Assembly (NCBI GenBank): GCA_964437495.1 | Contig: CAYTGV010000005.1 | Location: 759-64,758 of the forward strand | DNA: 64,000 nucleotides | Origin: an uncultured Planctomycetia bacterium | GTDB taxonomy: Bacteria; Omnitrophota; Gorgyraeia; B26-G9 | Direction: 5' to 3' | In this document: one piece after another, positions 1-62,802 of the stretch | Numbering within the stretch: the first letter of the stretch is position 1 | Layout of the letters: each line of letters starts with the position of its first letter | Made by a program: the position numbers and the translations under genes | The notes under the pieces: model-generated | What the model saw: the letters and a program-made list of their open reading frames with translations, nothing else | Databases searched by the model: none | Told to the model about the DNA's origin: nothing

Positions 1-3000
1 CGTCCGTGCTTTTAATCACATAGTTTGTTGCAACCAATTCTTCTTTATTAAAATCAAAATTTAGTGTTGCTGTAGCATTAAATTTTTCACCTGATGCCGA
101 TTGCCATCCCTCTAAAGATGAGGTTGGAGCCATTACACCTATTAATGCGATATCATTGAAAGATGAAAAATTTGAATCATTATACGTTAACAATCTGGTT
201 ATATTTGTAGATTGAAGTGTCATATCTACAGAACCAGACACTGATGCCTGGGTAACTGATACTAAACTCTTAGACTGCCAAACAAAAGCATTGTCTTCTC
301 CTGTAGTTCCTGTTAAAGCTACATCTTTATGTAAATAGCTAGCACTACTGCTGTAAAACTCAACATTACCCCTTGTACTTGAGCCTGTATGGTTATTAAT
401 AAATTCAGTAGGATTGTTGATAGTTTGGAGGTTGCTAATCAGGTCGTCACTTGTATAGATCGGATTCGAAAGCTGTATATCAGTAAGCATCTGATCTATT
501 GTCGAGCGGTCAACTGTAATATTTCCGCCGGCAGCCATAAAGGTAATCGTATCATTTGCTTCATAACCTTGCTTAAAATTCTGCTGACTTACCATCGTTG
601 ATATTTTAGCACGCGTATTGGTAATACCTGAAGTCACATTTGACACAGCCTGGGTATTCATAAAGCTGAGCTGGCGTGTACTGATTGTTTGTCCCCAAGC
701 CTGTCCAAAACTCAGGTTATTTGACTCTCCTGCTGTATCGCTGCCAGCTTGCTCGCCAAAAACCTCAGGATTTTTTTCTTTCTGCTCAGACCAGTACTCT
801 GCTTTTGCAGCATTTAGTGTCCAATAAGTATTGATACTGCCATCTTCATTATAATATTTTCCGTCCGCTCCTTGTTCTATACCGCTGTCCATGCCAAACA
901 TCATATATGACATTGTATCCATTTCACTGTTCCAGCTATCCATTGACAGCATTTTGTCATAAGCTGTAGCCTGACTATCTCCAGCATCGAATCCAACACT
1001 GCTAAATCCCTGATTGACCGCTGAAGAGATTTGCTGGCCAAGAGCATTCTGGAAAGCCTGCGTCTGCTCCTTTGAACTCATATTAGACATATCTACACTA
1101 TTATTTGTTGATGAGATATTAATAACTGATGATAAGTTATATGTTGCCTCAGAAGCCTGAGCATCAGTGTAATCAAGATTACGAATAAGAAATTCTTTAT
1201 ATCCACCGGTTAAAGATGAGGAAGCTCCTTCCCAAAAAGCATCTGACATCATATTAGTCCATGTAAAATTAACATCGTTAAAAGCCGTATCTGTTAAAGA
1301 TGAAGTCATACTGCCTATTGCCGAAGAAAAACCTGAAGTAAGAACAGGATCCCATCCATGTTCCTTACCAATGCGGTCTACAACCTTGCTGCCTATTGAC
1401 CCAACAAGTCCAGGAAGTGATTTGTACATATTCCCTTTAAAGGTCTGATCACTATGCAGGGCAGCCCCGCCTCCGGACTGTACAATCGTTCCTACTGTCA
1501 GCGCTATTCCTTCCATAACCAAAGGATCCCAGCCATGTTTATATCCTGCCTGCCTTACGGTTTCCATAGATAGGTTTGTTAATCCTCCGATAACCATATC
1601 CTTGAATATATAGCTTGAAGTAGTAGTAGTAGTAGTCGGTCCATAATTAAAAGCAGTACTTCCGGCCCAAGCACCTCCAAATCCAATAACAAAAGACCGA
1701 ACATAAGGATTAGTAACTCCAGCTGCATCTAATCCATAGACAAGCCCATATGATACAGCAGTTTGTTTGACAACATTTATAGCCACATTTTGTATAGCAA
1801 ATGGTGTCGCTGAACTTGATAACATAGCTAAACCGGTCGCGCCCACTGCTGTCCCCAATCCTCCGGTAAAAGATGTCCCAACAGTTCCCAAAGCCACGCC
1901 TTCAACACTAGTAGAGGCTACCGTTGAAGGTAAAGCTGCCCCTGCACCTGTTGCCATTGCCGATCCAGGTGATGCTGCAGAAAAAACTGCATTTCCTGCG
2001 ACATCTGTGCCCAGATATCCCATATTACTTTGAATACTCTCTGCCGGTCCCATAAAGGAAAAGGCAAAAGCAGCCACTCCATTCATTACAGCTTCAAGTA
2101 ACATTCTTTTGAAAATAATCTTAAATGCCTCTACATCATTATTCTTACAGGCCATTACCATATCATAGTCAAATAAATACCCTATAATTGTGCCGACAAA
2201 AGCACCTATTGCCATTCCAAGATTTGTATTACCTCCTAAGATTGTGCCAATAATACCGCCAATAATTGTGCAGACAGCAATGATAATAGTTTTAATTACT
2301 TGCCCAACTATCCTAGCAATATTTTCAGGCAGCATATGGTATAAAGTTACTACAGGCGCTATCATCATTTGGAAACTACCCATAGTCCTCTGCCAAAAAC
2401 CATCTTTTATCCGGTCCCAGTCTAGGGTTAAAATCCCTATCATCATCTGGATAGTACCTTGGATCCAGTTCTTCATACCGTTGTAAAAAGTTTTATAACC
2501 TTCGTAAACAGCTTTAACAAATTTCTTTACGTGATTATAAACAGCCTTAAATACACCGCCAAAAACACTGCGTCCGCCGCGGATCTGACGCATCTGCAGA
2601 TCAAGTAAACGATCTTTATCTATTGCTTTGTTATTTAAAGCCAGGACATAACCGTCCCAACGAATCTTAAGTTCTTCAATAGAGATAATCTCTGCTTTTC
2701 CATTATCAATAATTGAAACAGCATCTCCATCTATGTCTACAATAGTCACCCAGTGGTCATTATCTAAGTTAATAATTGCATTTTTATCAAGTTCCTTTAA
2801 GCTATCAAGGCTTAGCTTAAATCCTTCTAAGCTTATCCCGTACTTTTTGGCTACATTCTTTATTGCCATCATTGATGTCATTATATTTTTTTCTGTTATC
2901 TCTACTTCTCCTGTAGCGAGGATATCATCAACAATAAGCTCATAGGCCAGGTCTTCTTTAGAGGCCAGCTTGCGGCCTATATTTGCGGCAAAACTATCCA

Positions 3001-4171
3001 ATGCCTTTACCGCACAGTTGATAATGTTTACCGTATCATCCCAAACACCCTTTATTGCCTTTAAAATATAGGCCTTGCCAATATCAGCAAAGCTGTATCC
3101 GGCATCCACCATTGCCTTGGCAATAGCTGTCATATTACGGCTTAAGTCTGTTGCTATTTTTAATATGTCAACTGCGCTTATCCCGGCGGATTTAAATGCT
3201 GCCACAATATCTCTATCTGTAAAACCGGCATTTAACAGCGCCTCATAGATTTCTTTATCGCTATAGCTTACCTGTGCCTTATGGATTGACTGTACTATTT
3301 CCGTACAATTTAGATTTGCTTCTTTAAATATAGTTATGATATCTTTTAGATTAAATCCAATCTGGGCAAGAGCGTTTATGATACGCTCATTGGCAAGGCC
3401 GGCTTTCTTTAATATCCTAATTAGTTCTACACCGCGTTTGCCTTCATTTATCATTATGCGCACAAATTCAACACTCTGACGCAGCATTGCAGATTCTTTT
3501 GTGATTTTTTCGATCAACTTGGTAGGGTCTTTTTCGATCGGCATATCAGTTACTTTAGGAATTTCAAATATGCCTTCTTTGGCTTTAAGTACTTCTTCCT
3601 CTTTTTCTTCCTTTTTGTCCTTATCTAAAGGTGGTCCTGTTTTGCTTTCATCTACATCTGTCTTCTGCAGCTTCTTCTCTTCTTCAGCCTTAAGCAGTCC
3701 GCCTAAGAGTGTCTTAACATCATCCTTATCATAACCAGCTTTGATCAGCGCATGATATATCTCTTTCTTATTAAATCCCTGCCGCACAGCTCCAAATCCA
3801 GCTTCGGCAATTGAACATCCTGAACTTTTAAGAGTTGTAAATATAGCCGTCAGGTCATTACCGGCAATAGAAAGACCGCTGATCGTGGTATCGATTATCG
3901 GCATGGACTCTATCTGACCTTTAGTTATCACCTGCTCAAAGCCCATATAAGGCATTGCCGGATTAGTTAGCACAAGCTTATCACTCAGAGCATCAACAGA
4001 AAGCTTATCTCTGTTATCATTTGTCTGCTGGTTTTCCATCATCGCTTCTTTTGAGCCTTTATTCTCCCGGTAATTTGCTGCCCAGGAAATATCAGACATT
4101 GTAAATAGAAACGCCTCCAGCACAATAAAAGCAATTACCTTAAACCAAAGTTTTCCTGTTTGATCGTACAT
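1..4171 (-). CDS. giant multi-domain surface/membrane protein, N-terminus at 4171 and C-terminus beyond the window edge (at least 1390 aa); contains a C39-like cysteine peptidase domain
   Basis: Manual minus-strand translation from ATG at 4171..4169 (AGGAGG at 4177-4182, 5-nt spacer) runs without a stop to position 1. I confirmed the frame at three points (4171, 2752, 58); all have their first base at position = 1 mod 3. Protein order: N-terminal hydrophobic anchor (MYDQTGKLWFKVIAFIVLEAFLF); repeated ~18-35 aa helical modules (xEIYxALxxAGxxxxDIxxxFK); a C39-like core with INCAVKAL (Cys ~386) ... NDHWVTIVDIDGD (His ~472) ... ISIEELKIRWDGYVLAL; a polytopic Gly/Ile-rich hydrophobic block; duplicated HGWDP(L/V) modules; a Ser/Thr/Asn-rich tail with an (ACT)6 Thr run. 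It is absent from the ORF track because no stop lies in the window. Confidence 0.75.
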   Translation of the reverse strand, partial: MYDQTGKLWFKVIAFIVLEAFLFTMSDISWAANYRENKGSKEAMMENQQTNDNRDKLSVDALSDKLVLTNPAMPYMGFEQVITKGQIESMPIIDTTISGLSIAGNDLTAIFTTLKSSGCSIAEAGFGAVRQGFNKKEIYHALIKAGYDKDDVKTLLGGLLKAEEEKKLQKTDVDESKTGPPLDKDKKEEKEEEVLKAKEGIFEIPKVTDMPIEKDPTKLIEKITKESAMLRQSVEFVRIMINEGKRGVELIRILKKAGLANERIINALAQIGFNLKDIITIFKEANLNCTEIVQSIHKAQVSYSDKEIYEALLNAGFTDRDIVAAFKSAGISAVDILKIATDLSRNMTAIAKAMVDAGYSFADIGKAYILKAIKGVWDDTVNIINCAVKALDSFAANIGRKLASKEDLAYELIVDDILATGEVEITEKNIMTSMMAIKNVAKKYGISLEGFKLSLDSLKELDKNAIINLDNDHWVTIVDIDGDAVSIIDNGKAEIISIEELKIRWDGYVLALNNKAIDKDRLLDLQMRQIRGGRSVFGGVFKAVYNHVKKFVKAVYEGYKTFYNGMKNWIQGTIQMMIGILTLDWDRIKDGFWQRTMGSFQMMIAPVVTLYHMLPENIARIVGQVIKTIIIAVCTIIGGIIGTILGGNTNLGMAIGAFVGTIIGYLFDYDMVMACKNNDVEAFKIIFKRMLLEAVMNGVAAFAFSFMGPAESIQSNMGYLGTDVAGNAVFSAASPGSAMATGAGAALPSTVASTSVEGVALGTVGTSFTGGLGTAVGATGLAMLSSSATPFAIQNVAINVVKQTAVSYGLVYGLDAAGVTNPYVRSFVIGFGGAWAGSTAFNYGPTTTTTTSSYIFKDMVIGGLTNLSMETVRQAGYKHGWDPLVMEGIALTVGTIVQSGGGAALHSDQTFKGNMYKSLPGLVGSIGSKVVDRIGKEHGWDPVLTSGFSSAIGSMTSSLTDTAFNDVNFTWTNMMSDAFWEGASSSLTGGYKEFLIRNLDYTDAQASEATYNLSSVINISSTNNSVDMSNMSSKEQTQAFQNALGQQISSAVNQGFSSVGFDAGDSQATAYDKMLSMDSWNSEMDTMSYMMFGMDSGIEQGADGKYYNEDGSINTYWTLNAAKAEYWSEQKEKNPEVFGEQAGSDTAGESNNLSFGQAWGQTISTRQLSFMNTQAVSNVTSGITNTRAKISTMVSQQNFKQGYEANDTITFMAAGGNITVDRSTIDQMLTDIQLSNPIYTSDDLISNLQTINNPTEFINNHTGSSTRGNVEFYSSSASYLHKDVALTGTTGEDNAFVWQSKSLVSVTQASVSGSVDMTLQSTNITRLLTYNDSNFSSFNDIALIGVMAPTSSLEGWQSASGEKFNATATLNFDFNKEELVATNYVIKSTD
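1619..1636 (-). repeat. (AGT)6 trinucleotide repeat, encoding a Thr run inside the giant ORF
   Basis: agtagtagtagtagtagt is read directly at 1619-1636; in frame it encodes TTTTTT in the low-complexity tail. Confidence 0.6.
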
Positions 4172-4227: not shown

Positions 4228-4725
4228 TTAAACAATTCGGTTTATTATAAAATCTCTCAACTTTGCAGTTTTAGTTGGCGGTCCGGTTGAAACTTCATTT
4301 CTGCTTCTCGCCATAATCTCTTTAGTACTTGCCTTATCTTTATTTAAGCTATATGCCAGCTTAACATTATTTATATTAAAAAATGAGCAACTTAATGCTT
4401 TATAAATCTCGTTATTAAATACGCGCAATTCTTTTACAGATACGATTTTTGATATGGAATAATCGCTGCCTTCAAGCAAGCTAAACATGGCATCCAGATT
4501 AAGATGTGGTAAGTGCAATCCAACAAGGCTAAGCTGAAAACTGCCAATGCCGTCAATCAGACTTACAGACTTTGTAGCTATTCTATTAAATCTAAGAACA
4601 GCTTCCTTAAAGGTGTCCTTACTCTGGTACATAGCTGCCAGAGCAAAGTCAGCCTGAGTCAGCAACAAAGCCTGAATAATAATTACGACTATTATTTTAA
4701 GCCACAATTTCTTGCCCATAACCAT
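4228..4725 (-). CDS. hypothetical secreted protein (signal peptide), immediately upstream of and co-directional with the giant gene
   Basis: ORF 4228..4785; the likely true start is the internal Met (MVMGKKLWLKIIVVIIIQALLLTQADFALA), a classic signal peptide. There are 56 nt to the giant gene start. I recognise no domain. Confidence 0.45.
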   Translation of the reverse strand: MVMGKKLWLKIIVVIIIQALLLTQADFALAAMYQSKDTFKEAVLRFNRIATKSVSLIDGIGSFQLSLVGLHLPHLNLDAMFSLLEGSDYSISKIVSVKELRVFNNEIYKALSCSFFNINNVKLAYSLNKDKASTKEIMARSRNEVSTGPPTKTAKLRDFIINRIV

Positions 4726-5090
4726 TCTTTCTTTATTCCACCCCGGGGGTGGAATTTTGGTTGATCTAATAAAAAAAGATAGCAAAACTGCGTTCCTCGT
4801 CCTTTAATTCTACTCAGGACGAATCCTGAGCCTGTCAAATGGATTCGGCAGCTCGGCTATCTTGGCTTGCTTATCGCGTTATCGATACGCTCGGCGATCT
4901 TTGCATTAGCTTTAGACCCGTAGCTTTGCGCCCTCAAGTTTTCCTGAGTTTGCCATTTCGGTTTTTATACTTATTAAAATAATTTAAAATCTCTTTAGTT
5001 ACTGTAATTAAGTATACCATGCCTTTTTACGCTTGTCAATAGCCGGGCCTGGCCAGGAATAAGGTCATATTTTAATGATAGGTTAAGATA

Positions 5091-5443: not shown

Positions 5444-6655
5444 TTATGCGTGAATAAATATTTCTCTAATTACTAGGCTTGCCGCGCCTAGAGATACTGA
5501 GTTATCTCCTAGGCGTGAAGGAATTATCCTTACCATGCTGGCCGGCTCCTCAAAAGCAAGCCTTCTGACCATTCTCTTGATAGGCTCAAGAATAAGGTCT
5601 CCTGCACGCTCCATACCCCCACCCAGAATAACAATTTCAGGGTTGAACAGATTAATCAGATAAGCAATCCTGACACCAAGATTAAGTCCTGCCTTTTCAA
5701 GTATTTGTATACACTCTGTATCATTCTGTCTGGCTGCCTCAATGATTAACTCTACATCTACATTTTCAGCTATATTCTGAGCTAGCTCTTTAAGTTTTGG
5801 ACTCTTGCCAGACTTAAATGCTGCTACCCCTGAATCCACAATCCCTAGGTTTATGCTTCCCGGACGAAAAAGCCCCAATTCTTTGGTAAGATCATCATCT
5901 TCACCGCCAAGATTAAGCTGTACCTCTCCCGCACTACCTCCTGCGCCGGCATAGATCTCGCCCTTAATAATAATCCCGCAGCCAACATCAGAAAACATAT
6001 AAAGCACATTTTCTATTTCAGCATCCAAGCCAATTCTCTTTTCACCAAAAGCAGCAACTGTAGCGTCATTTCCCACAAAAGTCGGGATACCGAATTCTCT
6101 CTCAATTAAATTTTTAATTGAGATATAACTGGCTGCTGTTTTTCCTCGCTTAGGATCAGTATCTCTTACAGTTCCTGCCTTTGAATCAATAATACCAGAA
6201 ATCCCGATTCCCAATCCCTTTATCTTCTTTGCTTCAATCTGGGATTTTTCAATAACTTCATAAATCAATTCAATTGATTTGCTGACAACATCTTCCATTG
6301 ACTCTTTTGGACGCGGTTTTTTAACTTTTGTGATCATATTTAAAGAAAGATCAGTCAAAGCTGCAATAATATGTCCGGGCCCTATATCAATACCGATAAC
6401 AAAACAATTTCTGGAATTCAATTCAACTAATGTCGGTTTTCTACCGCCGCTTGAAATATCCAGCCCTTTTTCAACCACCAAATCTTTCTTTATATAGTTA
6501 TTTACATAATTAGAAACAGTAACAATATTATATTTTGTAATTCGAGATATTTCAGTTCTCGTCACTGGCCCGTAACGCCGGATAACTTCAAGTATATCAA
6601 GATTTTTACGCTCTCTGTCAGATAATATCTGATCTTTAAACAATGCACCCTTCAT
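5444..6655 (-). CDS. ROK family transcriptional regulator (N-terminal winged HTH plus ROK sugar-kinase-like domain; NagC/Mlc/XylR type)
   Basis: N-terminal HTH (VIRRYGPVTRTEISRITKYNIVTVSNYVNNYI) followed by ROK motifs (GIDIGPGHIIAAL, GEKRIGLDAEIENVLYMFSDVGCGIIIKGEIYAGAGGSAGEVQ). Confidence 0.85.
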   Translation of the reverse strand: MKGALFKDQILSDRERKNLDILEVIRRYGPVTRTEISRITKYNIVTVSNYVNNYIKKDLVVEKGLDISSGGRKPTLVELNSRNCFVIGIDIGPGHIIAALTDLSLNMITKVKKPRPKESMEDVVSKSIELIYEVIEKSQIEAKKIKGLGIGISGIIDSKAGTVRDTDPKRGKTAASYISIKNLIEREFGIPTFVGNDATVAAFGEKRIGLDAEIENVLYMFSDVGCGIIIKGEIYAGAGGSAGEVQLNLGGEDDDLTKELGLFRPGSINLGIVDSGVAAFKSGKSPKLKELAQNIAENVDVELIIEAARQNDTECIQILEKAGLNLGVRIAYLINLFNPEIVILGGGMERAGDLILEPIKRMVRRLAFEEPASMVRIIPSRLGDNSVSLGAASLVIREIFIHA

Positions 6656-6798: not shown

Positions 6799-6917
6799 GA
6801 ATGTTAAGTCAATCATGGTGTCAAGGACTCTGTTACTTTTTAAAGCAGTTGTGCTAGGAAGACTGTTTTTGCGGATTTAAAGATTGCTTTTACCATGGAT
6901 GAGCAAAAACACTCTTT

Positions 6918-6975
6918 CCCTCGCAGATAGCCAAGGAGGGCTATCGAGAATGAGCAAAAATAGTTTTTCTAGTAC
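6918..6975. promoter_or_regulatory. copy 1 of a conserved intergenic element (CCTCGCAG, variable hairpin, CGAGAATGAG, NNAAAATAGTTTTT)
   Basis: cctcgcag ATAGCC aagga GGGCTAT cgagaatgagcaaaaatagtttttctagtac. It shares flanks with 34341-34400 and 55096-55155; the hairpin arms differ but stay complementary. Confidence 0.4.
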
Positions 6976-7060
6976 AATTTACACTTAAAGACCTTCCAAT
7001 GTTTCTGCTTACCATTTATAAAAGCAATTGACTTTCTTACGATATCAAGGCAATAATATA

Positions 7061-8506
7061 CTAGCTAATCCGCCAGGTTGTCTTTCCGTCCTTTGTATCC
7101 TCGATTACAATACCTATCTCCTGCAATTCATCACGAATTTTATCCGCAGCTTTAAAATCTCTTTGCTTTTTATATTTTAAGCGAAGTTCAATCTTTTCTA
7201 CAATTTTCCTCTCATTAATACCATCTAGCTGTTTTTTCTCAAAAGACAAAGCTAAAACATCAATTATTTCTCTAAGCACATTTCTTGCATAAACTAATTT
7301 ACTATCATTTTTTAAAGAATCATCTCTGTCAAGTTCACTATTAGCCGCAGTTACAATGTCAAATAAAACCGCCCGTGCTGTTGCCATATTGAAATTGTCA
7401 TCCATCGCCGACTTAAATTCTTCTCTAAAAAATTGGCCCGGTTTTACTCCTGTTCCCCAAGCCTGCTCCGGCTGCTCCTGCTTACCCATCAAATATCTAT
7501 CCAGCCGATCAAGAAGCAGGGAAATTTTCTCATAATTTTTTTTCGACTCTTCCATCTTTTCCCAAGAAAAATCTAATGAGCTTGAATAATGCGCTTGTAA
7601 ATAAAATATCTTCAAAATATCCGCCGAATATCTCTTGAGCACATCTTTTATGGTCACGAAGTTACCTGCTGATTTAGCCATCTTTTGTGCGTTTATAGTC
7701 AATAATCCGTGATGTATCCAGTAATTGGCAAACTTTTTTCCGGTAAACGCCTCTGACTGTGCTTTTTCATTTTCATGATGCGGAAATATAAGGTCTCTAC
7801 CTCCACCATGTATATCTAAGGTATCAACCCCAAGATATTCCCGGCTCATCACTGAACACTCTATATGCCAACCAGGCCTGCCATTACCCCAGGGGCTCTC
7901 CCAAGAAGGCTCTTCTTCCTTTACTTTTTTCCAAAGAGCAAAATCAACCGGATCTTTCTTATCAATATCAGCTTCAATCCTAACTGAATCCTGAACTTGA
8001 TCCAAGGAATTCCCGGACAGGCTTCCATAATTATCTAGTTTTCTGGGGGAAAAATAAACATTTCCGTTTTGCTCATAAGCAAATCCTTTTTCTATAAGTC
8101 CACTTATATACTCTATGATCTGCTTAATGTTTTCAGTAGCTTTTGGTTCTACATCAGCTTTAGGCAGACCAAGTCCTTTAAGATCATCATAATAATCCTT
8201 GATATAAAAATTGCGCACGCTCTCAAAGGCCTGTTTTAAGGATATATTATCCCTTTTCGCCCAGTCTCTTGCCTTCTTTATTATTTTATCGTCAACATCA
8301 GTGATATTTCTAACCAGCTTAATATCATATCCGCTAAACTTTAAGTATCTGCGTATAACCTCAAAGACATAAAGTGATCTGGCATGACCGATATGGCATG
8401 AGTCATAGACAGTTACTCCGCAGGTATACATGTTCACCTTGCCAGGATATTGCGCTGCAAAGACTTCTTTTTTGGATGTTTGAGAATTATATATATTTAT
8501 CGTCAT
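7061..8506 (-). CDS. cysS: cysteine--tRNA ligase
   Basis: Class I HIGH (CHIGHARS) and KMSKS (KMAKS) motifs; full-length CysS architecture, 481 aa. Confidence 0.95.
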
Positions 8507-33362: not shown

Positions 33363-33718
33363 TTAACGTACAAAATGTATACTTAAGCATCTGTGGGGTC
33401 TCACACACCGTATATCTTTAAATAAACCATATAAGCCTTGCTCTGTCAATGCTGAAGTTTTCGGTTACAAGAAAAGGTGGTTGATGAATTTTCAAGCGAA
33501 TTTACACTATTTTAGTTAAGGATGCTATTATTTTGAGGGAACCCACAGGGCGCGAGGACTGTCTGATCCCGCTGCATTTAGGCGGGAGAGTTCCGCAGCG
33601 CCAAAAATCATAGCATAGTTAACGGCCCTGCAAGGGAAAATAGTGTTGAGCGTAAAATTTAGCAAGCACCTTACAACAAGCCGCTAAACATGCTATAAGC
33701 TACTTAGTAGATATGAAT

Positions 33719-33756
33719 CCTCCTTCGCCAAAGGCTTCGGAGGACAGGTCCTCCGT
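33719..33756. repeat. short copy of a palindromic repeat family (one arm plus the stub of the second arm)
   Basis: cctccttcgccaaaggcttcggaggacag gtcctccgta; ~27/30 identical to the arm of the 59476-59578 element. Confidence 0.45.
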
Positions 33757-33971: not shown

Positions 33972-34050
33972 TGGTGACGGCGGTTGGAGTTGAACCAACG
34001 ACATAACGGGTATGAGCCGTCCTCTCTACCAGACTGAGATACGCCGTCAC
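33972..34050 (-). tRNA. tRNA-Met (anticodon CAT; elongator Met, or Ile2 if lysidinylated)
   Basis: Cloverleaf read by hand: acceptor GTGACGG/CCGTCAC, D-loop AGTCTGGTAGAG, anticodon loop CTCATAC, T-loop GGTTCAACTCC, encoded CCA. Confidence 0.85.
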
Positions 34051-34189
34051 TTTAGAAGTTAAAAGTAAAAAGGTAAAAGTAAAAAGTCAAAAGCATTAAA
34101 ACTATTTTTAAAAACTCTCTGTCTCAACCACTTCTGGCTAATAGAAGTTTATCCTATACCGAGCAAATTTCGTGAGCTCTGGTACGGGA

Positions 34190-34218
34190 CCGTCACTTTA
34201 GAAGTTAAAAGTAAAAAG
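34190..34218. repeat. direct duplicate of the tRNA-Met 5' end plus 22 nt of upstream flank
   Basis: ccgtcactttagaagttaaaagtaaaaag occurs at 34044-34072 and again at 34190-34218; the second copy is preceded by a degenerate D-arm-like stretch (ctctggtacggga). Confidence 0.5.
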
Positions 34219-34340
34219 TCAAAAGTAAAAAGTTGTAAGCTAAAAACCAATATTTTTAACTAACACTACAAGAGATGTGAAAATTATTTTAACGGATTTT
34301 ATTTACTGATTTTTCAAGGATATTAAAAAATAAGTAAATA

Positions 34341-34400
34341 CCTCACAGATAGACATGAATGTCTATCGAGAATGAGTTGAAATAGTTTTTACAGATCTTG
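34341..34400. promoter_or_regulatory. copy 2 of the conserved intergenic element
   Basis: cctcacag ATAGACAT gaa TGTCTAT cgagaatgagttgaaatagtttttacagatcttg. Confidence 0.4.
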
Positions 34401-34531
34401 TCAAAGAACATCATCTATAATATCCGCCTAAAACATACATGTCCTATGTATAACAGCGAGATTATTTAATCCTAAAATAAAAAATCTGTCCATTTATTCT
34501 AAGACAGTTTATTAGAAAAATCAAGCAGGTT

Positions 34532-35509
34532 TTAGGCTAAATCTACTTTTTCCAAAGCCATACCTACTAGTTCATTAAGTAGCTCCATAAGCTTTTCAGA
34601 GAATCTATTCGGCTGCTTTGCCGTTCCCACACTGATAACGCCGAGTATTTCATGATGATGAAAAACCGGGATAACAAACGCAGATTTAATTTTCGGTTTA
34701 TGCATCCGCAGGCGAAGTTCACGATCTGATAACTCTTCGTTAATAAAAAGTCCCTTTTTCTTCTGTATGGCTGAGCCGGCAAGACCTTCTCCGGGTTTTA
34801 TCTTGGTATTATTGATAATATCCTCACTTAGGCCTGTTGCGTCTTTAATAGAAAGTTCCTGAGTGCTTTTCTCAAATAACATCATTGAGCCGCGCTCTGC
34901 ATCGCAAAGCTTCATCGCCAGCTCAAGAAATGTCTTCAGCAACATACCAACCTGCTCTTTGCTAAATAATACCTTTTCCTTTTCACCAGAAGTTGTCAGA
35001 GCGCCCAGAGTCTTCATGAATTTAGTTATACCTGTAGAGAAATCAACTACGCTCTCAAGCTTTGCAGCACTCACTGCCGGCAGCTCATTAAAACAGTTGA
35101 AAAACTTCTCCTCATCAACTCCTGAATCCTGTATACGCTGTGTAAATTTAATATCCTTTTTCCCGTCTTTAAAAACAACCGGTCCCAAAATCAGGAAAAC
35201 AGGCTCAGCATTATCAAGAATTATCGGCACAGAAAAGTTCGCAAGCCCCAAAGGACATATATTTTCATAATATTTTTTAGGCTCTTGTTTTTTAAGAAAT
35301 GCGGCAAGCTTTGGATACCACTGAATGCATTTTTCACTTGCGGTATCCGAGGAAGCAACAGCCTCACTGCAGACTGATGGCATATTTGAGGGGCGTACAA
35401 CTTTCTCTCCTTGAACATCAATTGTGCGGATACCCATCCCCACGATTGAAGATAAAGTATCTTGTACATTCTGCCAGTGATTGTCGCCAATTATTTCGCT
35501 GAATTTCAT
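34532..35509 (-). CDS. GAF domain sensor protein with N-terminal ligand-binding-type domain (no output domain)
   Basis: C-terminal GAF fold (DAERGSMMLF...PGEGLAGSAI...SAFVIPVFHHHEILGVISVG); an N-terminal ~170 aa Cys-containing sensory domain of the PocR type is my tentative call. Confidence 0.65.
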   Translation of the reverse strand: MKFSEIIGDNHWQNVQDTLSSIVGMGIRTIDVQGEKVVRPSNMPSVCSEAVASSDTASEKCIQWYPKLAAFLKKQEPKKYYENICPLGLANFSVPIILDNAEPVFLILGPVVFKDGKKDIKFTQRIQDSGVDEEKFFNCFNELPAVSAAKLESVVDFSTGITKFMKTLGALTTSGEKEKVLFSKEQVGMLLKTFLELAMKLCDAERGSMMLFEKSTQELSIKDATGLSEDIINNTKIKPGEGLAGSAIQKKKGLFINEELSDRELRLRMHKPKIKSAFVIPVFHHHEILGVISVGTAKQPNRFSEKLMELLNELVGMALEKVDLA

Positions 35510-52961: not shown

Positions 52962-54935
52962 TTATTCAACAGTAACGCTTTTTGCCAGGTTTCTCGGCTG
53001 ATCAACATCACAGCCTAAGCCCACGGCGATCTGATATGCAAGAAACTGAAGCGGCAGAGCAATAAGCAAAGGGGAGAAAAAATCGTCAATCTCAGGTATT
53101 TCAATAATATAATCTGAATATTCCCTCCTGCTTATCTCCTTATCGCCTTTTGTGGCAATAGAAAGAACAGTGCCTTTTCGTGCCTTTATTTCTCTGATAT
53201 TTGAAAGCATTTTTTCATACACTTCCGACTTTGTGGCTATACATACAACCAAAGGGAATTCATCAATAAGTGCTATCGGCCCATGTTTCATTTCACCAGC
53301 AGGATAACCTTCAGCGCTTATATATGTTATCTCTTTTAATTTTAGGGCTCCTTCCAAGGCACTGGGGTAATTCACATTACGCCCTAAATATAAAAACGGA
53401 AAATCCCCAAAACGCCGGCCATAAGTAGAATGCGAAAGTCTTGCCCATTTCTTAGCATATTCAAGCGCTTTTTTAGGATTTTTAAACTGTACGATATCGT
53501 CTTCGAGAAACTTAAACTGCTCCGCAAGACGGTAATGATAGCGATTTACATATTCAAAAGCAATCTTTTTTACTTTTTTTTGATTTTTTATAATATCTTG
53601 CATAAGAGCAGGTATTGTTTTCATTTTGTCTGTATAGCTAGAAAGCTGTTTATTAGTAATTGTTCCTTTGATCCCTGACAGATATAAGCCCAACAAATAA
53701 AAGGTCATCAGCTGTGCCGTATATGCCTTTGTCGAGGCAACGGAAATTTCCGGGCCTGCCAGCGTATATATAACCCCGTCTGATTCCCGGGCAATTGAAC
53801 TGCCTACAACATTACAAATCGAGAGTATCTTTGCTCCCTTGTCTTTTGCCGCACGCAAACTGGCTAATGTGTCCGCAGTCTCCCCGGATTGACTGACCGG
53901 GATAATCAGGGTTTTATTCTTAGTAATAATCTGCTGGCGATATCTGAACTCACTGGATGTATCAACATTAATAGGAACATGGAGCATTTTTTCTAAAATA
54001 TATTTACCGCATAGCCCGGCATGATAAGCCGTCCCGCAGGCAATTATCTGAATGTTTGTTATATTTTTCAGCTGACTACGGGATAGATTAATATTTTCAA
54101 AAGCAATGGCCTTTGACTTTATACGATTCCTTAGAATGCGCTCCATCACATGCGGCTGCTCTTCTATTTCTTTTAGCATAAAATGCGCGTATCCCGCTTT
54201 TTCAGCACTAGCAGCATTCCAGTTTATTCTAACCTTCTTTTTTTTGATCTCTTTGCACTTTTGATTAAATACTTTAACTTCGCTTTTACTTATCTTTGCA
54301 ATTTCATTATTATCCAAATATATGATATCTCGAGTATGTGATAGTATCGCCGGAACATCTGAAGCAATAAAATTTTCTCCTTTACCTAGGCCTACGATCA
54401 GAGGACTATCTTTACGGGCCGCAATAAGCACATCAGGTTCATGTAAAGAGATCACTCCCAACGCGAAGCTTCCCTTAAGATATCCTATTGTGCGGCAAAC
54501 AGCAGCCAGCAGATCTCCTTTATAAAGTTTTTCCACTAAATGCGCAATCACCTCTGTATCTGTTTGAGAGGAAAACTTGTGGCCTTCTGCTTTTAGTTTT
54601 ATCTTCAATTCATGATGGTTTTCAATAATGCCGTTATGGACCACAAGGAAATTTTTTGTATTCCCGTAATGCGGATGGGCATTTACCTCATTGGGCTCGC
54701 CATGAGTTGCCCAGCGGGTATGGCCAATACCAAGATGCCCTGCGACATGACGATCTATGAGGCAATCAGACAGGACCTTAAATTTTCCCGCCCTTTTAAG
54801 AAGATAAAGCCGCTTTCTTTTATCAATTATTGCAATCCCGGCTGAGTCATACCCTCTATATTCTAGAGAGCGAAGGCCTTTGATAAGTATTGTTGCTGAG
54901 TTTCTATTTCCGATATATCCTACAATCCCGCACAT
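52962..54935 (-). CDS. glmS: glutamine--fructose-6-phosphate aminotransferase (isomerizing)
   Basis: N-terminal MCGIVGYIG (Ntn Cys2), two SIS domains and a C-terminal ...AKSVTVE. It is 657 aa, about 45 aa longer than typical, with a Lys-rich insert. Confidence 0.95.
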   Translation of the reverse strand: MCGIVGYIGNRNSATILIKGLRSLEYRGYDSAGIAIIDKRKRLYLLKRAGKFKVLSDCLIDRHVAGHLGIGHTRWATHGEPNEVNAHPHYGNTKNFLVVHNGIIENHHELKIKLKAEGHKFSSQTDTEVIAHLVEKLYKGDLLAAVCRTIGYLKGSFALGVISLHEPDVLIAARKDSPLIVGLGKGENFIASDVPAILSHTRDIIYLDNNEIAKISKSEVKVFNQKCKEIKKKKVRINWNAASAEKAGYAHFMLKEIEEQPHVMERILRNRIKSKAIAFENINLSRSQLKNITNIQIIACGTAYHAGLCGKYILEKMLHVPINVDTSSEFRYRQQIITKNKTLIIPVSQSGETADTLASLRAAKDKGAKILSICNVVGSSIARESDGVIYTLAGPEISVASTKAYTAQLMTFYLLGLYLSGIKGTITNKQLSSYTDKMKTIPALMQDIIKNQKKVKKIAFEYVNRYHYRLAEQFKFLEDDIVQFKNPKKALEYAKKWARLSHSTYGRRFGDFPFLYLGRNVNYPSALEGALKLKEITYISAEGYPAGEMKHGPIALIDEFPLVVCIATKSEVYEKMLSNIREIKARKGTVLSIATKGDKEISRREYSDYIIEIPEIDDFFSPLLIALPLQFLAYQIAVGLGCDVDQPRNLAKSVTVE

Positions 54936-54992: not shown

Positions 54993-55021
54993 ATTCTAAT
55001 ATCCCCAAGTGGTGTGAACAA
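54993..55021 (-). promoter_or_regulatory. candidate sigma70 promoter for glmS
   Basis: Minus strand TTGTTC (55021-55016), a 17-nt spacer, TAGAAT (54998-54993); a ~50-nt leader with a GAAGGAG SD. Confidence 0.4.
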
Positions 55022-55095
55022 TCCAAGAACTGGGAATAACTGTTTTAGCGGATTAGGTACGCCGATTTTACAGGATGTGAAAAATAGGCGACCGT

Positions 55096-55155
55096 CCTCG
55101 CAGTTTTACATGGATGTAAAACGAGAATGAGCTAAAATAGTTTTCTCAGATCTTG
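55096..55155. promoter_or_regulatory. copy 3 of the conserved intergenic element, between the nagA stop and the glmS promoter
   Basis: cctcgcag TTTTACAT gg ATGTAAAA cgagaatgagctaaaatagttttctcagatcttg. Confidence 0.4.
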
Positions 55156-55194
55156 CTACTAAACTAAACCAAAAGCGTTAGTATATCCTAAAAC

Positions 55195-56256
55195 TCATAT
55201 TCTCTTATAAACTATGTTTCCGTTTACTATTGTCATCCTACATTTAAAATCTTTATCAAAAATAACAATATCGGCGTCATAACCTTTTGAAATTACTCCC
55301 TTTATGTTATCAACGCCGATGATTTTTGCCGGATTAAGACTAGCCATCCCAACCGCCTGAGTAATTGAAACTCCACACAAGTATACCATATTTTTCACAG
55401 CCTGCAACAAATTCAGCTTACTTCCTGCGATGGTAAAATTTTCCATACGGTAAACACCCTCGATTATCTCTAAAGACTTCGTATCCATAGCTGCCACAGA
55501 ATCGCTTACCAAAACGATCTTGTCAGCCAATTTGCATTTCACTAAAAGCCTAAGATTATCCGGATGCACATGATGCGTATCAGCAATAACCTCTGCGGAA
55601 ATTCGGTCATCAAGCAAAACCTGGGTAATAACGCCCGGATTCCTGGAAGAAATCCCACTCATGCGATTAAAAACATGCGTGGTATATAAACACCCTTGGT
55701 CTATTGCTTTTTTTGTCTGCTCAATGCTTGCATCTGTATGCCCGATTGCCGCAACAATTTTATTTTTCCTTAACATCTTTATTAAGGATATACTATTTTT
55801 AAGCTCAGGGGCTATTGTTATTATCCTGATCTTTCCAGGCGCTTTTTTAACCCATAACTTTACTGCCCGAATATCAGGATCTATAACAAACTGCTTAGGC
55901 TGCGCTCCAGCCATAACTTTGTTTATGAAAGGACCTTCAAGATGAACGCCCAGGCATTTTGAACCTTTTAGCAAAGGATCAGGTAAAACAGACAATGACT
56001 TTGAAAATTGATTCAGACTTCTTGTTTGAAGACTATTTAAAAAACCTGTCACCCCATATTTTGCCTGCATCATGGATATTTTATTTATATCACCATGTAT
56101 ATGAAGATCAATAAACCCCGGAGCCACATAGGCTGATGCAGCATTTATATACTCAGTGTTTCTTAAAATCGGTTTTACCCCTCTACCGATCTTTATTATC
56201 TTATTACCATTAATATTTATCCAAGAATTATTTACAATCTTATCCCCGCTTATCAA
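55195..56256 (-). CDS. nagA: N-acetylglucosamine-6-phosphate deacetylase
   Basis: Amidohydrolase metal ligands (FIDLHIHG, GVHLEGPFIN, IGHTDAS, HVFNRM). Confidence 0.85.
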   Translation of the reverse strand: MISGDKIVNNSWININGNKIIKIGRGVKPILRNTEYINAASAYVAPGFIDLHIHGDINKISMMQAKYGVTGFLNSLQTRSLNQFSKSLSVLPDPLLKGSKCLGVHLEGPFINKVMAGAQPKQFVIDPDIRAVKLWVKKAPGKIRIITIAPELKNSISLIKMLRKNKIVAAIGHTDASIEQTKKAIDQGCLYTTHVFNRMSGISSRNPGVITQVLLDDRISAEVIADTHHVHPDNLRLLVKCKLADKIVLVSDSVAAMDTKSLEIIEGVYRMENFTIAGSKLNLLQAVKNMVYLCGVSITQAVGMASLNPAKIIGVDNIKGVISKGYDADIVIFDKDFKCRMTIVNGNIVYKRI

Positions 56257-59337: not shown

Positions 59338-59475
59338 GGAAACATTATAACATGAGAAAAAACTTTAAGGCAGATTAATTAGTTGTGGAGGGAATATGAA
59401 CCGTTGTTTCCGCCACAAAGTATGGCGTCCGCTAAAAACACTTGGTCTACACTACGCATCCCCAGGGGGTCGTTT

Positions 59476-59578
59476 CCTCCTTTGCCAAAGGCTACGTAGG
59501 ACAGCTTCGCTAAAAAACAGCTATGGTGGGCAAGCCGCACTTGAGCCGACCTGTCCTCCGTAGCTTTAGCAAAGGAGG
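59476..59578. repeat. ~100-bp palindromic element (29-nt inverted arms around a 35-nt loop)
   Basis: Left arm cctcctttgccaaaggctacgtaggacag (59476-59514) against right arm cctgtcctccgtagctttagcaaaggagg (59550-59578). Related to 33719-33756. Overlapped by the spurious track ORF 59379-59696. Confidence 0.45.
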
Positions 59579-59645: not shown

Positions 59646-59685
59646 AAAAAAATAGACCACTCTAAAAAGAGTGGCCTTATTTTTT
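59646..59685. terminator. bidirectional intrinsic terminator between the tRNA-Glu gene and its inverted fragment
   Basis: aaaaaaa tagaCCACTC taaaaa GAGTGG ccttattttttgg. Confidence 0.5.
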
Positions 59686-59762
59686 GGCGTCCCCAAGGGG
59701 ATTTGAACCCCTGTCGACAGATCGAAAATCTGTTGTCCTGGACCAGGCTAGACGATGGGGAC
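59685..59762 (-). tRNA. tRNA-Glu (TTC)
   Basis: GTCCCCATCGTCTAGCCTGGTCCAGGACAACAGATTTTCGATCTGTCGACAGGGGTTCAAATCCCCTTGGGGACGCCA; anticodon loop TTTTCGA. Confidence 0.9.
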
Positions 59763-61926: not shown

Positions 61927-62802
61927 CTATTCCTTCCCTTTTGCTTTCGACGTCTTTTTCTTTACTGAAGTTGTTTCCTTTTTCGCCTTTTCAGATTTCT
62001 TTTTTACAGTCTGCCCTTTACTGACATCCTTTGCTTCTTTAGCTACTTCTTTAGCTACTTCTTTAGCTACTTCTTTAGCTGCTTCTTTAGAAACAGAAGC
62101 TTCACTTTTTCTAGTCTTTACATAATTACTGTTGCCTTCAATAATCGCCTCAGCAATAGCAGCTGCCACAAGTCTAACTGATTTTATCGCATCATCGTTT
62201 CCCGGGATAACATAATCAATGACATCAGGATCCGAATTAGTATCAACTAATGCGACTATTGGTATCTTTAAGCGACGCGCTTCTTTTACCGCGGTTTCTT
62301 CTTTTTTAATATCTACAACAAAAAGAGCGCCGGGAAGTTTGTCCATATTTCTGATTCCACCTAAATTTTTCAGAAGTTTTAACATTTCCTTAGTATAAAT
62401 AGCAACTTCCTTTTTCTTCAGCTTATCAAAAGTCCCATCATCGCGCATAGTTTCAAGCTTCTCCAAGCGCTTAATGCTATTTCGAATAGTTCCAAAATTT
62501 GTCAAAGTTCCGCCCAACCAGCGTTGATCTACATAGAACATTTCACAACGGTTTGCCTCGTCAACAATTGCTTGTTGAGCCTGTTTCTTTGTACCGACAA
62601 AAAGAACATATTCACCACTAGACGCAATACCATTTAGAAAATCACAGCCAGCCTTAAGCTCCTTTTCTGTTTTTTCCAGATTGATAATATAAATACCATT
62701 CCGTTCGCCAAAAATATAACGAGCCATTTTAGGATTCCAACGCCTTGTCTGGTGCCCAAAATGCACCCCTGACTCCAATAACTGTTTGATTGAAACTGCC
62801 AA
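61927..62802 (-). CDS. rpsB: 30S ribosomal protein S2 with a Lys/Glu/Ala-rich C-terminal extension
   Basis: S2 core ([14 protein letters not shown]...), then a ~60-aa tail [45 protein letters not shown]; 2-nt gap to tsf. Confidence 0.9.
62041..62088. repeat. four tandem 12-bp repeats (AGCTACTTCTTT) inside the rpsB tail, encoding (KEVA)n
   Basis: agctacttcttt x3 plus agctgcttcttt, with a degenerate fifth unit upstream. Confidence 0.6.

Follow-up and report, generated by a model that had tools for sequence, protein, structure and literature searches.

A dispersed three-way-junction element between genes of an Omnitrophota contig, with relatives in distant bacterial phyla

Results

Three copies of a 133-nt element in the window

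We analysed a window of 64,000 nt from an uncultured bacterium of the phylum Omnitrophota (assembly GCA_964437495.1, contig CAYTGV010000005.1, positions 759 to 64,758 of the forward strand) and found that a non-coding element of about 133 nt, present in three copies 21-27 kb apart between housekeeping genes, belongs to a large and previously uncatalogued family of dispersed elements. The copies behave as small non-autonomous mobile units in gene-end spacers, and the strand bearing CGG..CCTCRCAG..CGAGAATGAG is the one that has been selected to fold. The best explanation overall, to which we give about an even chance, is a dispersed mobile element that acts as a structured RNA.

An earlier, sequence-only reading of the window had described a repeat of about 60 nt in three copies, with a variable but complementary hairpin, and had proposed it as the operator of a neighbouring ROK (NagC/Mlc-type) regulator. 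The three positions were borne out: CGAGAATGAGNNNAAATAGTTTT occurred in the window only at 6945, 34367 and 55122, always on the + strand (0 expected in 100 shuffles), and a repeat search of the window recovered the same 60-nt family. The repeat is therefore real, but its length was underestimated. When 200-nt windows were aligned, conservation reached about 75 nt further upstream, to ..CTGTTTTAGCGGATT.., and took in a second box, CGGATT, and a second variable hairpin (P2), so that the 60 nt form the 3' half of the unit. In the complete architecture a closing helix (P1) leads into CGG(ATT), hairpin P2, CCTCRCAG, hairpin P3 and CGAGAATGAG, and closes again in P1. The covariance model R1, built from 35 sequences with an RNAalifold consensus, matched the window exactly three times (90, 82.5 and 80.5 bits), the next best match having 12.9 bits.

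Copy 1 spans 6847-6979 on the + strand (R1 match 6858-6968, 90 bits, with P1 extended to 26 bp). Its P1 5' arm, AGTTGTGCTAGGAAGACTGTTTTTGC (6847-6872), pairs with 6954-6979, and the non-Watson-Crick pairs are G-T on the + strand. Then follow the CGGATT junction strand with hairpin P2, whose loop contains CCATGGATGA (6872-6918), the junction strand CCTCGCAG (6919-6926), hairpin P3, GATAGCCAAGGAGGGCTATC, with the loop AAGGAGG (6926-6945), and finally the junction strand CGAGAATGAG with the P1 3' arm GCAAAAATAGTTTTTCTAGTACAATT (6945-6979). Copy 2 (34268-34401, +, 82.5 bits) has CGG at 34293, P2 at 34296-34340, CCTCACAG at 34341-34348, P3 at 34348-34367 and CGAGAATGAG at 34367-34376, enclosed by P1 arms at 34268-34293 and 34376-34401. 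In copy 3 (55023-55155, +, 80.5 bits), CGG is at 55049, P2 at 55052-55095 (loop ACAGGATGT), CCTCGCAG at 55096-55103, P3 at 55103-55122 (loop CATGGATG) and CGAGAATGAG at 55122-55131, with P1 arms at 55023-55049 and 55131-55155. An extension of 17 nt to its left, GTGGTGTGAACAATCCA (55006-55022, +), travels with the element, since homology with the metagenome locus L214 begins at 55006 and ends at the 3' end of P1. The covarying hairpin of the sequence-only reading, with arms that differ between copies yet remain complementary, is P3. The segment AAAATAGTTTT, taken there for a near-palindrome, is indeed conserved, but it is the 3' arm of the long helix P1 and pairs with the upstream ..AACTGTTTT...

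Covariation and the folding strand

The + strand folds of copies 1, 2 and 3 had energies of -38.7, -34.2 and -46.7 kcal/mol, with z-scores that ranged from -4.2 (copy 1) to -5.8 (copy 3). The corresponding energies of the - strand were -32.6, -25.4 and -34.6 kcal/mol, so the + strand folded better by 6-12 kcal/mol. The RNAalifold consensus of the 35 sequences showed compensatory changes in 22 of its 28 pairs. Across 110 distinct sequences, 94.1% of the stem cells were paired, 987 cells had changes on both sides, and the covariation score was 0.788, compared with 0.174 when partners were shuffled and 0.10-0.15 when they were slid by 1-3 columns; the counted alignment had been fitted to R1, so these counts lean towards structure. 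The consensus changes and the gap between true and shuffled partners support the earlier suggestion that covariation in the hairpin reflects selection on structure.

P1 had a narrow length range (median 26 bp, mostly 23-32), and it contained 189 G-U pairs against 43 A-C, about 4:1. This bias held both in copies antisense to their neighbours (51:10) and in sense copies (17:7). The + strand of the window is C-rich, with a GC skew of about -0.2 (-0.11 to -0.25 at the three copies), and mutation bias on such a strand would push in the direction opposite to the G-U excess; the strand with CGG..CCTCRCAG..CGAGAATGAG is therefore the one selected to fold. Approximately 24 near-invariant junction nucleotides are framed by three freely covarying helices, and across genomes of 24% to 78% G+C the junction strands stayed constant while the stems were free. 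Both of our scans required CCTCRCAG and CGAGAATGAG, so that the invariance of these two strands is partly imposed; matches found by the model only vary somewhat in both.

Extent of the family

A genome collection was scanned with the pattern CCTCRCAGN{12,30}CGAGAATGAG. This pattern is loose, and about 60% of the rows were chance matches in coding sequences, which were removed by P1 pairing and the model; around 40 loci had the full architecture. A second, stricter scan of metagenomes added 117 more loci. Among the scan loci there were 113 R1 matches, 110 of them distinct, and R1 also found inexact extra copies a few kb from others in loci of Nitrospirota and Ignavibacteria. The carriers belong to Omnitrophota, the phylum of the window, to Nitrospirota including Thermodesulfovibrionales, to Ignavibacteria and to Saccharibacteria, and further to Desulfurivibrio (Desulfobacterota), including the cultured isolate Desulfurivibrio sp. 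D14AmB (locus L114), to other delta-type proteobacteria and to Planctomycetales (Planctomycetota). Genomes often held several copies, and the elements were about 130-170 nt long across the family.

Rfam 15 offered no family for the element at gathering score in the window, none of relevance at E<=10 for copy 1, and nothing at E<=1 for six loci with other variants, in a catalogue that includes self-cleaving ribozymes, riboswitches and CsrB/Rsm RNAs. A literature search on the conserved strings and on descriptive terms returned only primers and unrelated papers. None of 35 pattern matches in viral contigs fitted the model, and plasmids gave no BLAST match.

Gain, loss and decay of copies

Copy 2 is kept at the orthologous site of another Omnitrophota genome (locus L109), where the region is 76% identical to the window at the nucleotide level and the protein of the neighbouring PocR-GAF gene is 92% identical. 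Between the two, P1 shows one compensatory change (A-T to G-C), two wobble-preserving changes and two disruptive ones. Copy 3 is 90.5% identical over 148 nt to a copy in L214 that lies between different genes, with a compensatory T-A to C-G change in P3. Repeat units within one genome measured 148-292 nt and were 83-90% identical.

None of the six orthologous nagA-glmS loci from Omnitrophota relatives (NagA 61-79% identical) held an intact copy: four of the spacers had only 46-57 nt and no element, one held an unrelated nucleotidyltransferase insertion in its place, and one (L285) retained a decayed remnant that had lost P3 and the CCTCGCAG strand by deletion between the two similar loops. One of these loci, L282, comes from the same genome assembly as L109, so that genome has copy 2 and not copy 3. 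Copies are thus gained, kept, decayed or absent at orthologous sites, and they behave as small non-autonomous mobile units rather than as locus-specific regulators.

The nucleotidyltransferase insertion (L286, 3998-4531, in the Omnitrophota bin S2.42) consists of a Polbeta-type nucleotidyltransferase gene and a small open reading frame (ORF), and is toxin-antitoxin-like; the same spacer has therefore served as an insertion site more than once.

Other repeats adjoin copies 2 and 3 in the window. At 34415-34470 and 55165-55195 (+), 25-70 nt to the right of these copies, there are short motifs, ATATCCGCCTAAAAC, TAATCCTAAAAT and ATATCCTAAAAC, that resemble an inverted P1/junction segment (compare AATCCGCTAAAAC) and may be remnants of further inverted copies; L109 lacks the stretch of about 55 nt that holds them beside copy 2. 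Directly to the left of copy 2 lies a direct repeat of 66 nt (34044-34109 and 34190-34255, 83% identical), which starts inside the 5' end of a tRNA-Met gene (-) and could be a duplicated tRNA-upstream region.

Apical loops

The apical loops of P2 and P3 were of the same kind within each element. GGA was present in both loops of 44 sequences, in neither loop of another 44 and in one loop only of 10 (frequency of GGA in shuffled loops, 0.21). The commonest forms of the loop motif, CA(N)GGA(U>G,C,A)G, were ACAGGAUGU, CAUGGAUG and CAAGGAUGU. We take this motif to be the one recognised by CsrA/RsmE, in which C-G closes an ANGGAN loop. The CsrA consensus from in vitro selection (SELEX) is RUACARGGAUGU. 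The copies of the window fall in the GGA class: the loops are ACAGGATGT and CATGGATG in copy 3 and CCATGGATGA and CAAGGAGG in copy 1, and one of the loops of copy 2 has decayed. In copy 3, both loops have the ANGGAN form closed by C-G, and the two sites would be within the reach of one dimer. A small subgroup had ACGAU in both loops.

CsrA is a homodimer that recognises hairpin loops containing GGA, and it is present in about 30% of bacterial genomes, including those of Planctomycetota and Nitrospira (PMC13443453). The loop sequences suggest, tentatively, that P2 and P3 together may bind one CsrA-type dimer in the half of the family to which the window belongs. The CsrB/RsmZ sponge RNAs are similar in having GGA in ANGGAN-type loops closed by C-G, and in them two adjacent hairpins can clamp one CsrA dimer (PMC13443453). 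However, each of those RNAs comes from a single-copy gene that has its own promoter and terminator, and carries 4-20 GGA sites, whereas the element carries two sites per unit on a conserved junction, occurs in many units per genome, has no promoter or terminator that we could find, and is without GGA loops in half of its family. Since half of the family does without them, loop recognition would be an add-on, and the junction must carry the common function.

Genomic placement

The sequence-only reading had the gene context right. Copy 1 lies between the ROK gene (5444-6655, -), which has a TTGACA-17-TATAGT promoter at 6798-6770, and the CysRS gene (7061-8506, -); copy 2 is next to a PocR-GAF sensor gene (34532-35509, -); and copy 3 lies between the genes for GlmS (52962-54935, -) and NagA (55195-56256, -). 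The five genes all lie on the - strand, which makes the folded + strand antisense to every neighbour of the element in the window.

Across the family, the element was nearer to the stop of the upstream gene (median about 35-40 nt) than to the next start (about 100-125 nt), in either orientation. In 48 of 76 cases the element and the downstream gene were on opposite strands, and distances to co-directional genes were scattered; a cis-acting riboswitch, which would lie upstream of a gene and co-directional with it, was therefore rejected. When replication direction was approximated by GC skew, the C-rich strand carried 36 of 50 copies, but in loci of 8 kb this measure is confounded with gene orientation. 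We also rejected an intrinsic terminator, which would need a G+C-rich hairpin with a U-tract: no U-tract followed P1 on either strand, and the base composition past P1 was not T-rich. None was predicted at the elements in the window, and of the three window spacers two had no predicted canonical terminator at all, while that of copy 1 had only a weak one (7076-7061, -).

Tests for a mobilising enzyme

In four related contigs (L159, L217, L235 and L249), an IS91-family Y2 transposase gene ended 45 nt upstream of a co-oriented copy. IS91 works through single-stranded DNA and has subterminal palindromes, and CTCG and CTTG are its cleavage and target sites (PMC13181058). The element bears some likeness to the ends of IS91 (oriIS/terIS), in that it contains CCTCG and that copies 2 and 3 of the window end in ..AGATCTTG. 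A general link was nevertheless rejected: at ten loci (L272-L281) with three homologous transposases (62-70% identical) there was no element nearby, in a search with filters off and E<=1. Within the element-bearing lineage, conservation continues on both sides of the element, which is therefore not a terminus of the insertion sequence (IS).

Downstream of the Y2 transposase and the element, three of these contigs (L217, reverse strand, 1720-1967; L249, 1790-1996; L235, 2265-2517) have a near-consensus promoter, TTGACA-17-TATAGA, followed by perfect tandem repeats of 62-69 nt (e.g. AACAATAAGAGGGCTATACCTCGGAATTATTCCCGTCTGAATGTAACCGGAGGTTACCCTTG), and the contigs end inside the repeats. In another locus (L110, 2156-3879), an AAA_14/DUF4143 ATPase gene (2450-3667, -) is bracketed by inverted copies of the element (2156-2250, +, and 3784-3879, -), which might mark a mobilised cassette.

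No Y1/RAYT-like ORF was found in about 1.5 Mb of DNA flanking the copies, and the loci collected included no longer, autonomous version with the two halves separated. Target-site duplications were absent from the ends of copies 1-3 and L214, and no conserved target was seen.

Comparison with known repeats

The element has the small size and terminal inverted repeats of a MITE (miniature transposable element with inverted repeats), with a P1 of median 26 bp and units of 148-292 nt. It was rejected as such a transposon, because we found neither a target-site duplication at the ends of copies 1-3 and L214 nor, among the loci collected, a related autonomous IS sharing its ends. ERIC, Correia (NEMIS) and MITE-like elements are 100-160 bp long, with long terminal inverted repeats whose duplex is sufficient for RNase III, and they are intergenic, non-coding and found in either orientation. 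The element resembles them in size, in its long terminal inverted repeats, in intergenic position and in the lack of coding capacity. It differs in that each of those families keeps to a single genus or family, lacks a conserved multi-helix core and has stems without strand-specific G-U selection; Correia moreover makes TA duplications, and none were seen for the element.

Repetitive extragenic palindromes (REPs), with their mosaic (BIME) and paired (REPIN) forms, are a second point of comparison. REP/BIME are high-copy palindromic intergenic repeats that are recognised strand-specifically as folded single strands, with a conserved motif 5' of the hairpin (PMC8266576). The element likewise occurs between genes in many copies close to gene ends, and one of its hairpins has a short conserved motif immediately on its 5' side. 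REPs are, however, lineage-specific simple hairpins of 20-50 nt with GTAG, whereas the element is a three-way junction of about 133 nt, shares about 24 junction bases across phyla and has GCAG/ACAG before P3, with no RAYT gene found near its copies; the simple palindrome after GTAG was thus rejected as a description.

Integron attC sites are structured sites of 60-140 nt placed right after ORFs; their central part can be branched, and recombination uses the folded bottom strand, which is antisense to the cassette gene. By analogy of placement and strand the element is attC-like, as a structured site past ORFs with an antisense folded strand. We rejected an attC site in the strict sense, because there are no RYYYAAC/GTTRRRY end boxes (the P1 ends are not conserved), no cassette arrays and no integrase nearby.

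Other features of the window

A c-di-GMP-I-GGC riboswitch aptamer (RF03167) was detected at 4843-4963 (-), with 62.2 bits against a gathering score of 59, upstream of an ORF at 4228-4785 (-). An imperfect palindrome of 30 nt, TCCTCCTTCGCCAAAGGCTTCGGAGGACAG, occurs at 33718-33747 and at 59475-59504 (90% identical); a tRNA gene lies about 200 nt from each copy (tRNA-Met, 33972-34048, and tRNA-Glu, 59685-59762), and the surroundings are otherwise only weakly similar. Finally, a tandem repeat of 12 nt, CTTCTTTAGCTA, is present in about five copies at 62034-62093, probably within a coding region.

Discussion

We propose that the element is a mobile unit that acts as RNA. The working form would be the + strand RNA, carried as part of any transcript that crosses the element, a step towards which we lean modestly. 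One source of such RNA could be divergent antisense transcription from the promoter of the downstream gene, which the 5' end of the element faces. A cut within the P1 duplex, whose 26 bp suffice for a double-strand-specific RNase such as RNase III, could then release the core. In the window's half of the family, the twin GGA loops might then clamp one dimer of CsrA/RsmA, or a similar symmetric protein, although we would not put this step above a tentative suggestion. The conserved junction would provide a function common to the whole family, be it folding, processing or catalysis.

Several observations weigh against this proposal. Of the 42 co-directional gene pairs that enclose a copy, 32 have both genes antisense to the folded strand and 10 have them in the same sense (28 and 8 of 36 after removal of duplicates, p about 0.001), so that an RNA would need antisense or divergent transcription, and a ratio of about 3:1 is equally expected from replication-linked strand bias. 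G-T wobbles are tolerated in folded single-stranded DNA as well. No sigma-70-type -10 box was found at a fixed upstream distance on either strand; a TAATAT/TATAAT box lies 16 nt upstream of copy 3 and of L214, and is common to that pair only. No terminator was predicted after the element at the window copies. The leaning of the stem counts and the partly imposed constancy of the junction strands, both described above, count on the same side. As regards the protein partner, the variants of Nitrospirota, Ignavibacteria and Saccharibacteria have no GGA loops, although Nitrospira has CsrA, so CsrA binding is not the function of the whole family; the 64-kb window has no csrA gene, which is uninformative at that length.

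The strongest alternative, which we regard as unlikely but serious, is that the fold is used as single-stranded DNA and that RNA is irrelevant: the element would be a non-autonomous REP/REPIN- or attC-like unit, with a three-way junction that a trans-acting HUH-type enzyme or tyrosine recombinase would recognise and cut or join in replication. Such a unit would account for multiple copies whose ends are defined and whose P1, of about 26 bp, is like a terminal inverted repeat, for gain, loss and decay at orthologous sites, for a near-identical copy at another locus and for the missing promoter and terminator. Folding is strand-specific regardless of gene orientation, the 3:1 antisense bias matches the usual bias of genes towards the leading strand, and the C-rich strand carries all three copies of the window. 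GCAG/ACAG also stands before P3, where REPs have their GTAG guide, and P2 and P3 loops of the same type would suit a dimeric enzyme. On the other hand, the flanks yielded no Y1/RAYT-like ORF, the sole association with an IS91-type (Y2) enzyme is lineage-specific, IS homologues at 62-70% identity lack the element, and neither a target-site duplication nor a conserved target was seen. In the window it is the leading-strand template that folds, whereas IS200/IS605-type elements use the lagging-strand template. Conservation of the junction across phyla would be unusual for REPs or MITEs, which are lineage-specific, and the loops match the motif of an RNA-binding protein.

It is less probable still that the junction CGG / CCUCRCAG / CGAGAAUGAG is the centre of a new RNA class, catalytic or binding a protein or ligand, that spread in the manner of short interspersed elements (SINEs) and recruited CsrA in half of its members. 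We also consider it improbable that the junction houses the catalytic centre of a new small self-cleaving ribozyme or forms the pocket of a trans-acting ligand-sensing RNA. Here the antisense placement would be the tolerated one, since sense copies would cut or perturb host mRNAs. The near-invariant junction between three covarying helices would fit, as would the profile, which is that of hammerhead- or twister-type ribozymes (a patchy spread over many phyla, several copies per genome and no gene association), and no known ribozyme model matched. Against it, no cleavage site is apparent, the neighbourhood of phages or integrases typical of bacterial ribozymes is missing (0 of 35 viral pattern matches), the copies do not precede co-directional genes in the way of a cis-acting riboswitch, and a P1 of 26 bp far exceeds the needs of a ribozyme or aptamer.

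We give little credence to a terminator or insulator, serving the upstream gene or stopping antisense transcripts from the downstream promoter. The position about 35 nt past the stop and before the next promoter, in either orientation, would suit this role, as would the lack of a canonical terminator in two of the three window spacers (with a weak one in the spacer of copy 1) and a 5' end that faces the downstream promoter, where divergent transcription would begin. However, P1 is followed by no U-tract on either strand, a simple hairpin would do, which leaves the conserved junction unexplained, and relatives lack the element at the same loci.

The operator proposed by the sequence-only reading, through which the adjacent ROK regulator would control itself and nagA/glmS, retains next to no probability. 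It drew on two of the three copies, which adjoin the ROK gene or sit between nagA and glmS, but unrelated genes flank copy 2 and over 100 further instances; when 280 and later 472 flanking ORFs were clustered all against all, no family recurred and no amino-sugar genes turned up. A wide family without gene association, together with relatives that run nagA-glmS without the element in their orthologous spacers, rules this reading out. The conserved bases are moreover single-strand junction segments with strand-specific G-U pairing, and not the double-stranded palindrome of about 20-25 bp of a NagC/ROK operator. The same reading had offered a small mobile or structural repeat as its fallback, and this is essentially what the evidence shows.

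Returning to the mobile structured element as we favour it, its lack of the defining features of REP, ERIC/Correia and attC sets it apart from each of them, and by analogy it appears most like the REP/REPIN, ERIC and Correia repeats in its working. Dispersed palindromic repeats of this kind are thought to be lineage-specific, whereas the branched fold and the junction of the element span distant and mostly uncultivated phyla, and this implies that a partner or a chemistry has been conserved with them. The element is missing from Rfam 15, so annotation leaves its sites blank or invites their over-reading as local regulatory sites; a covariance model now exists with which copies can be annotated. 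Should the twin GGA loops indeed bind CsrA, the family would amount to a scattered and mobile reservoir of CsrA sites. A catalytic or ligand-binding junction would represent a new RNA class, and if the element acts as single-stranded DNA, it would point to an unrecognised mobilising enzyme.

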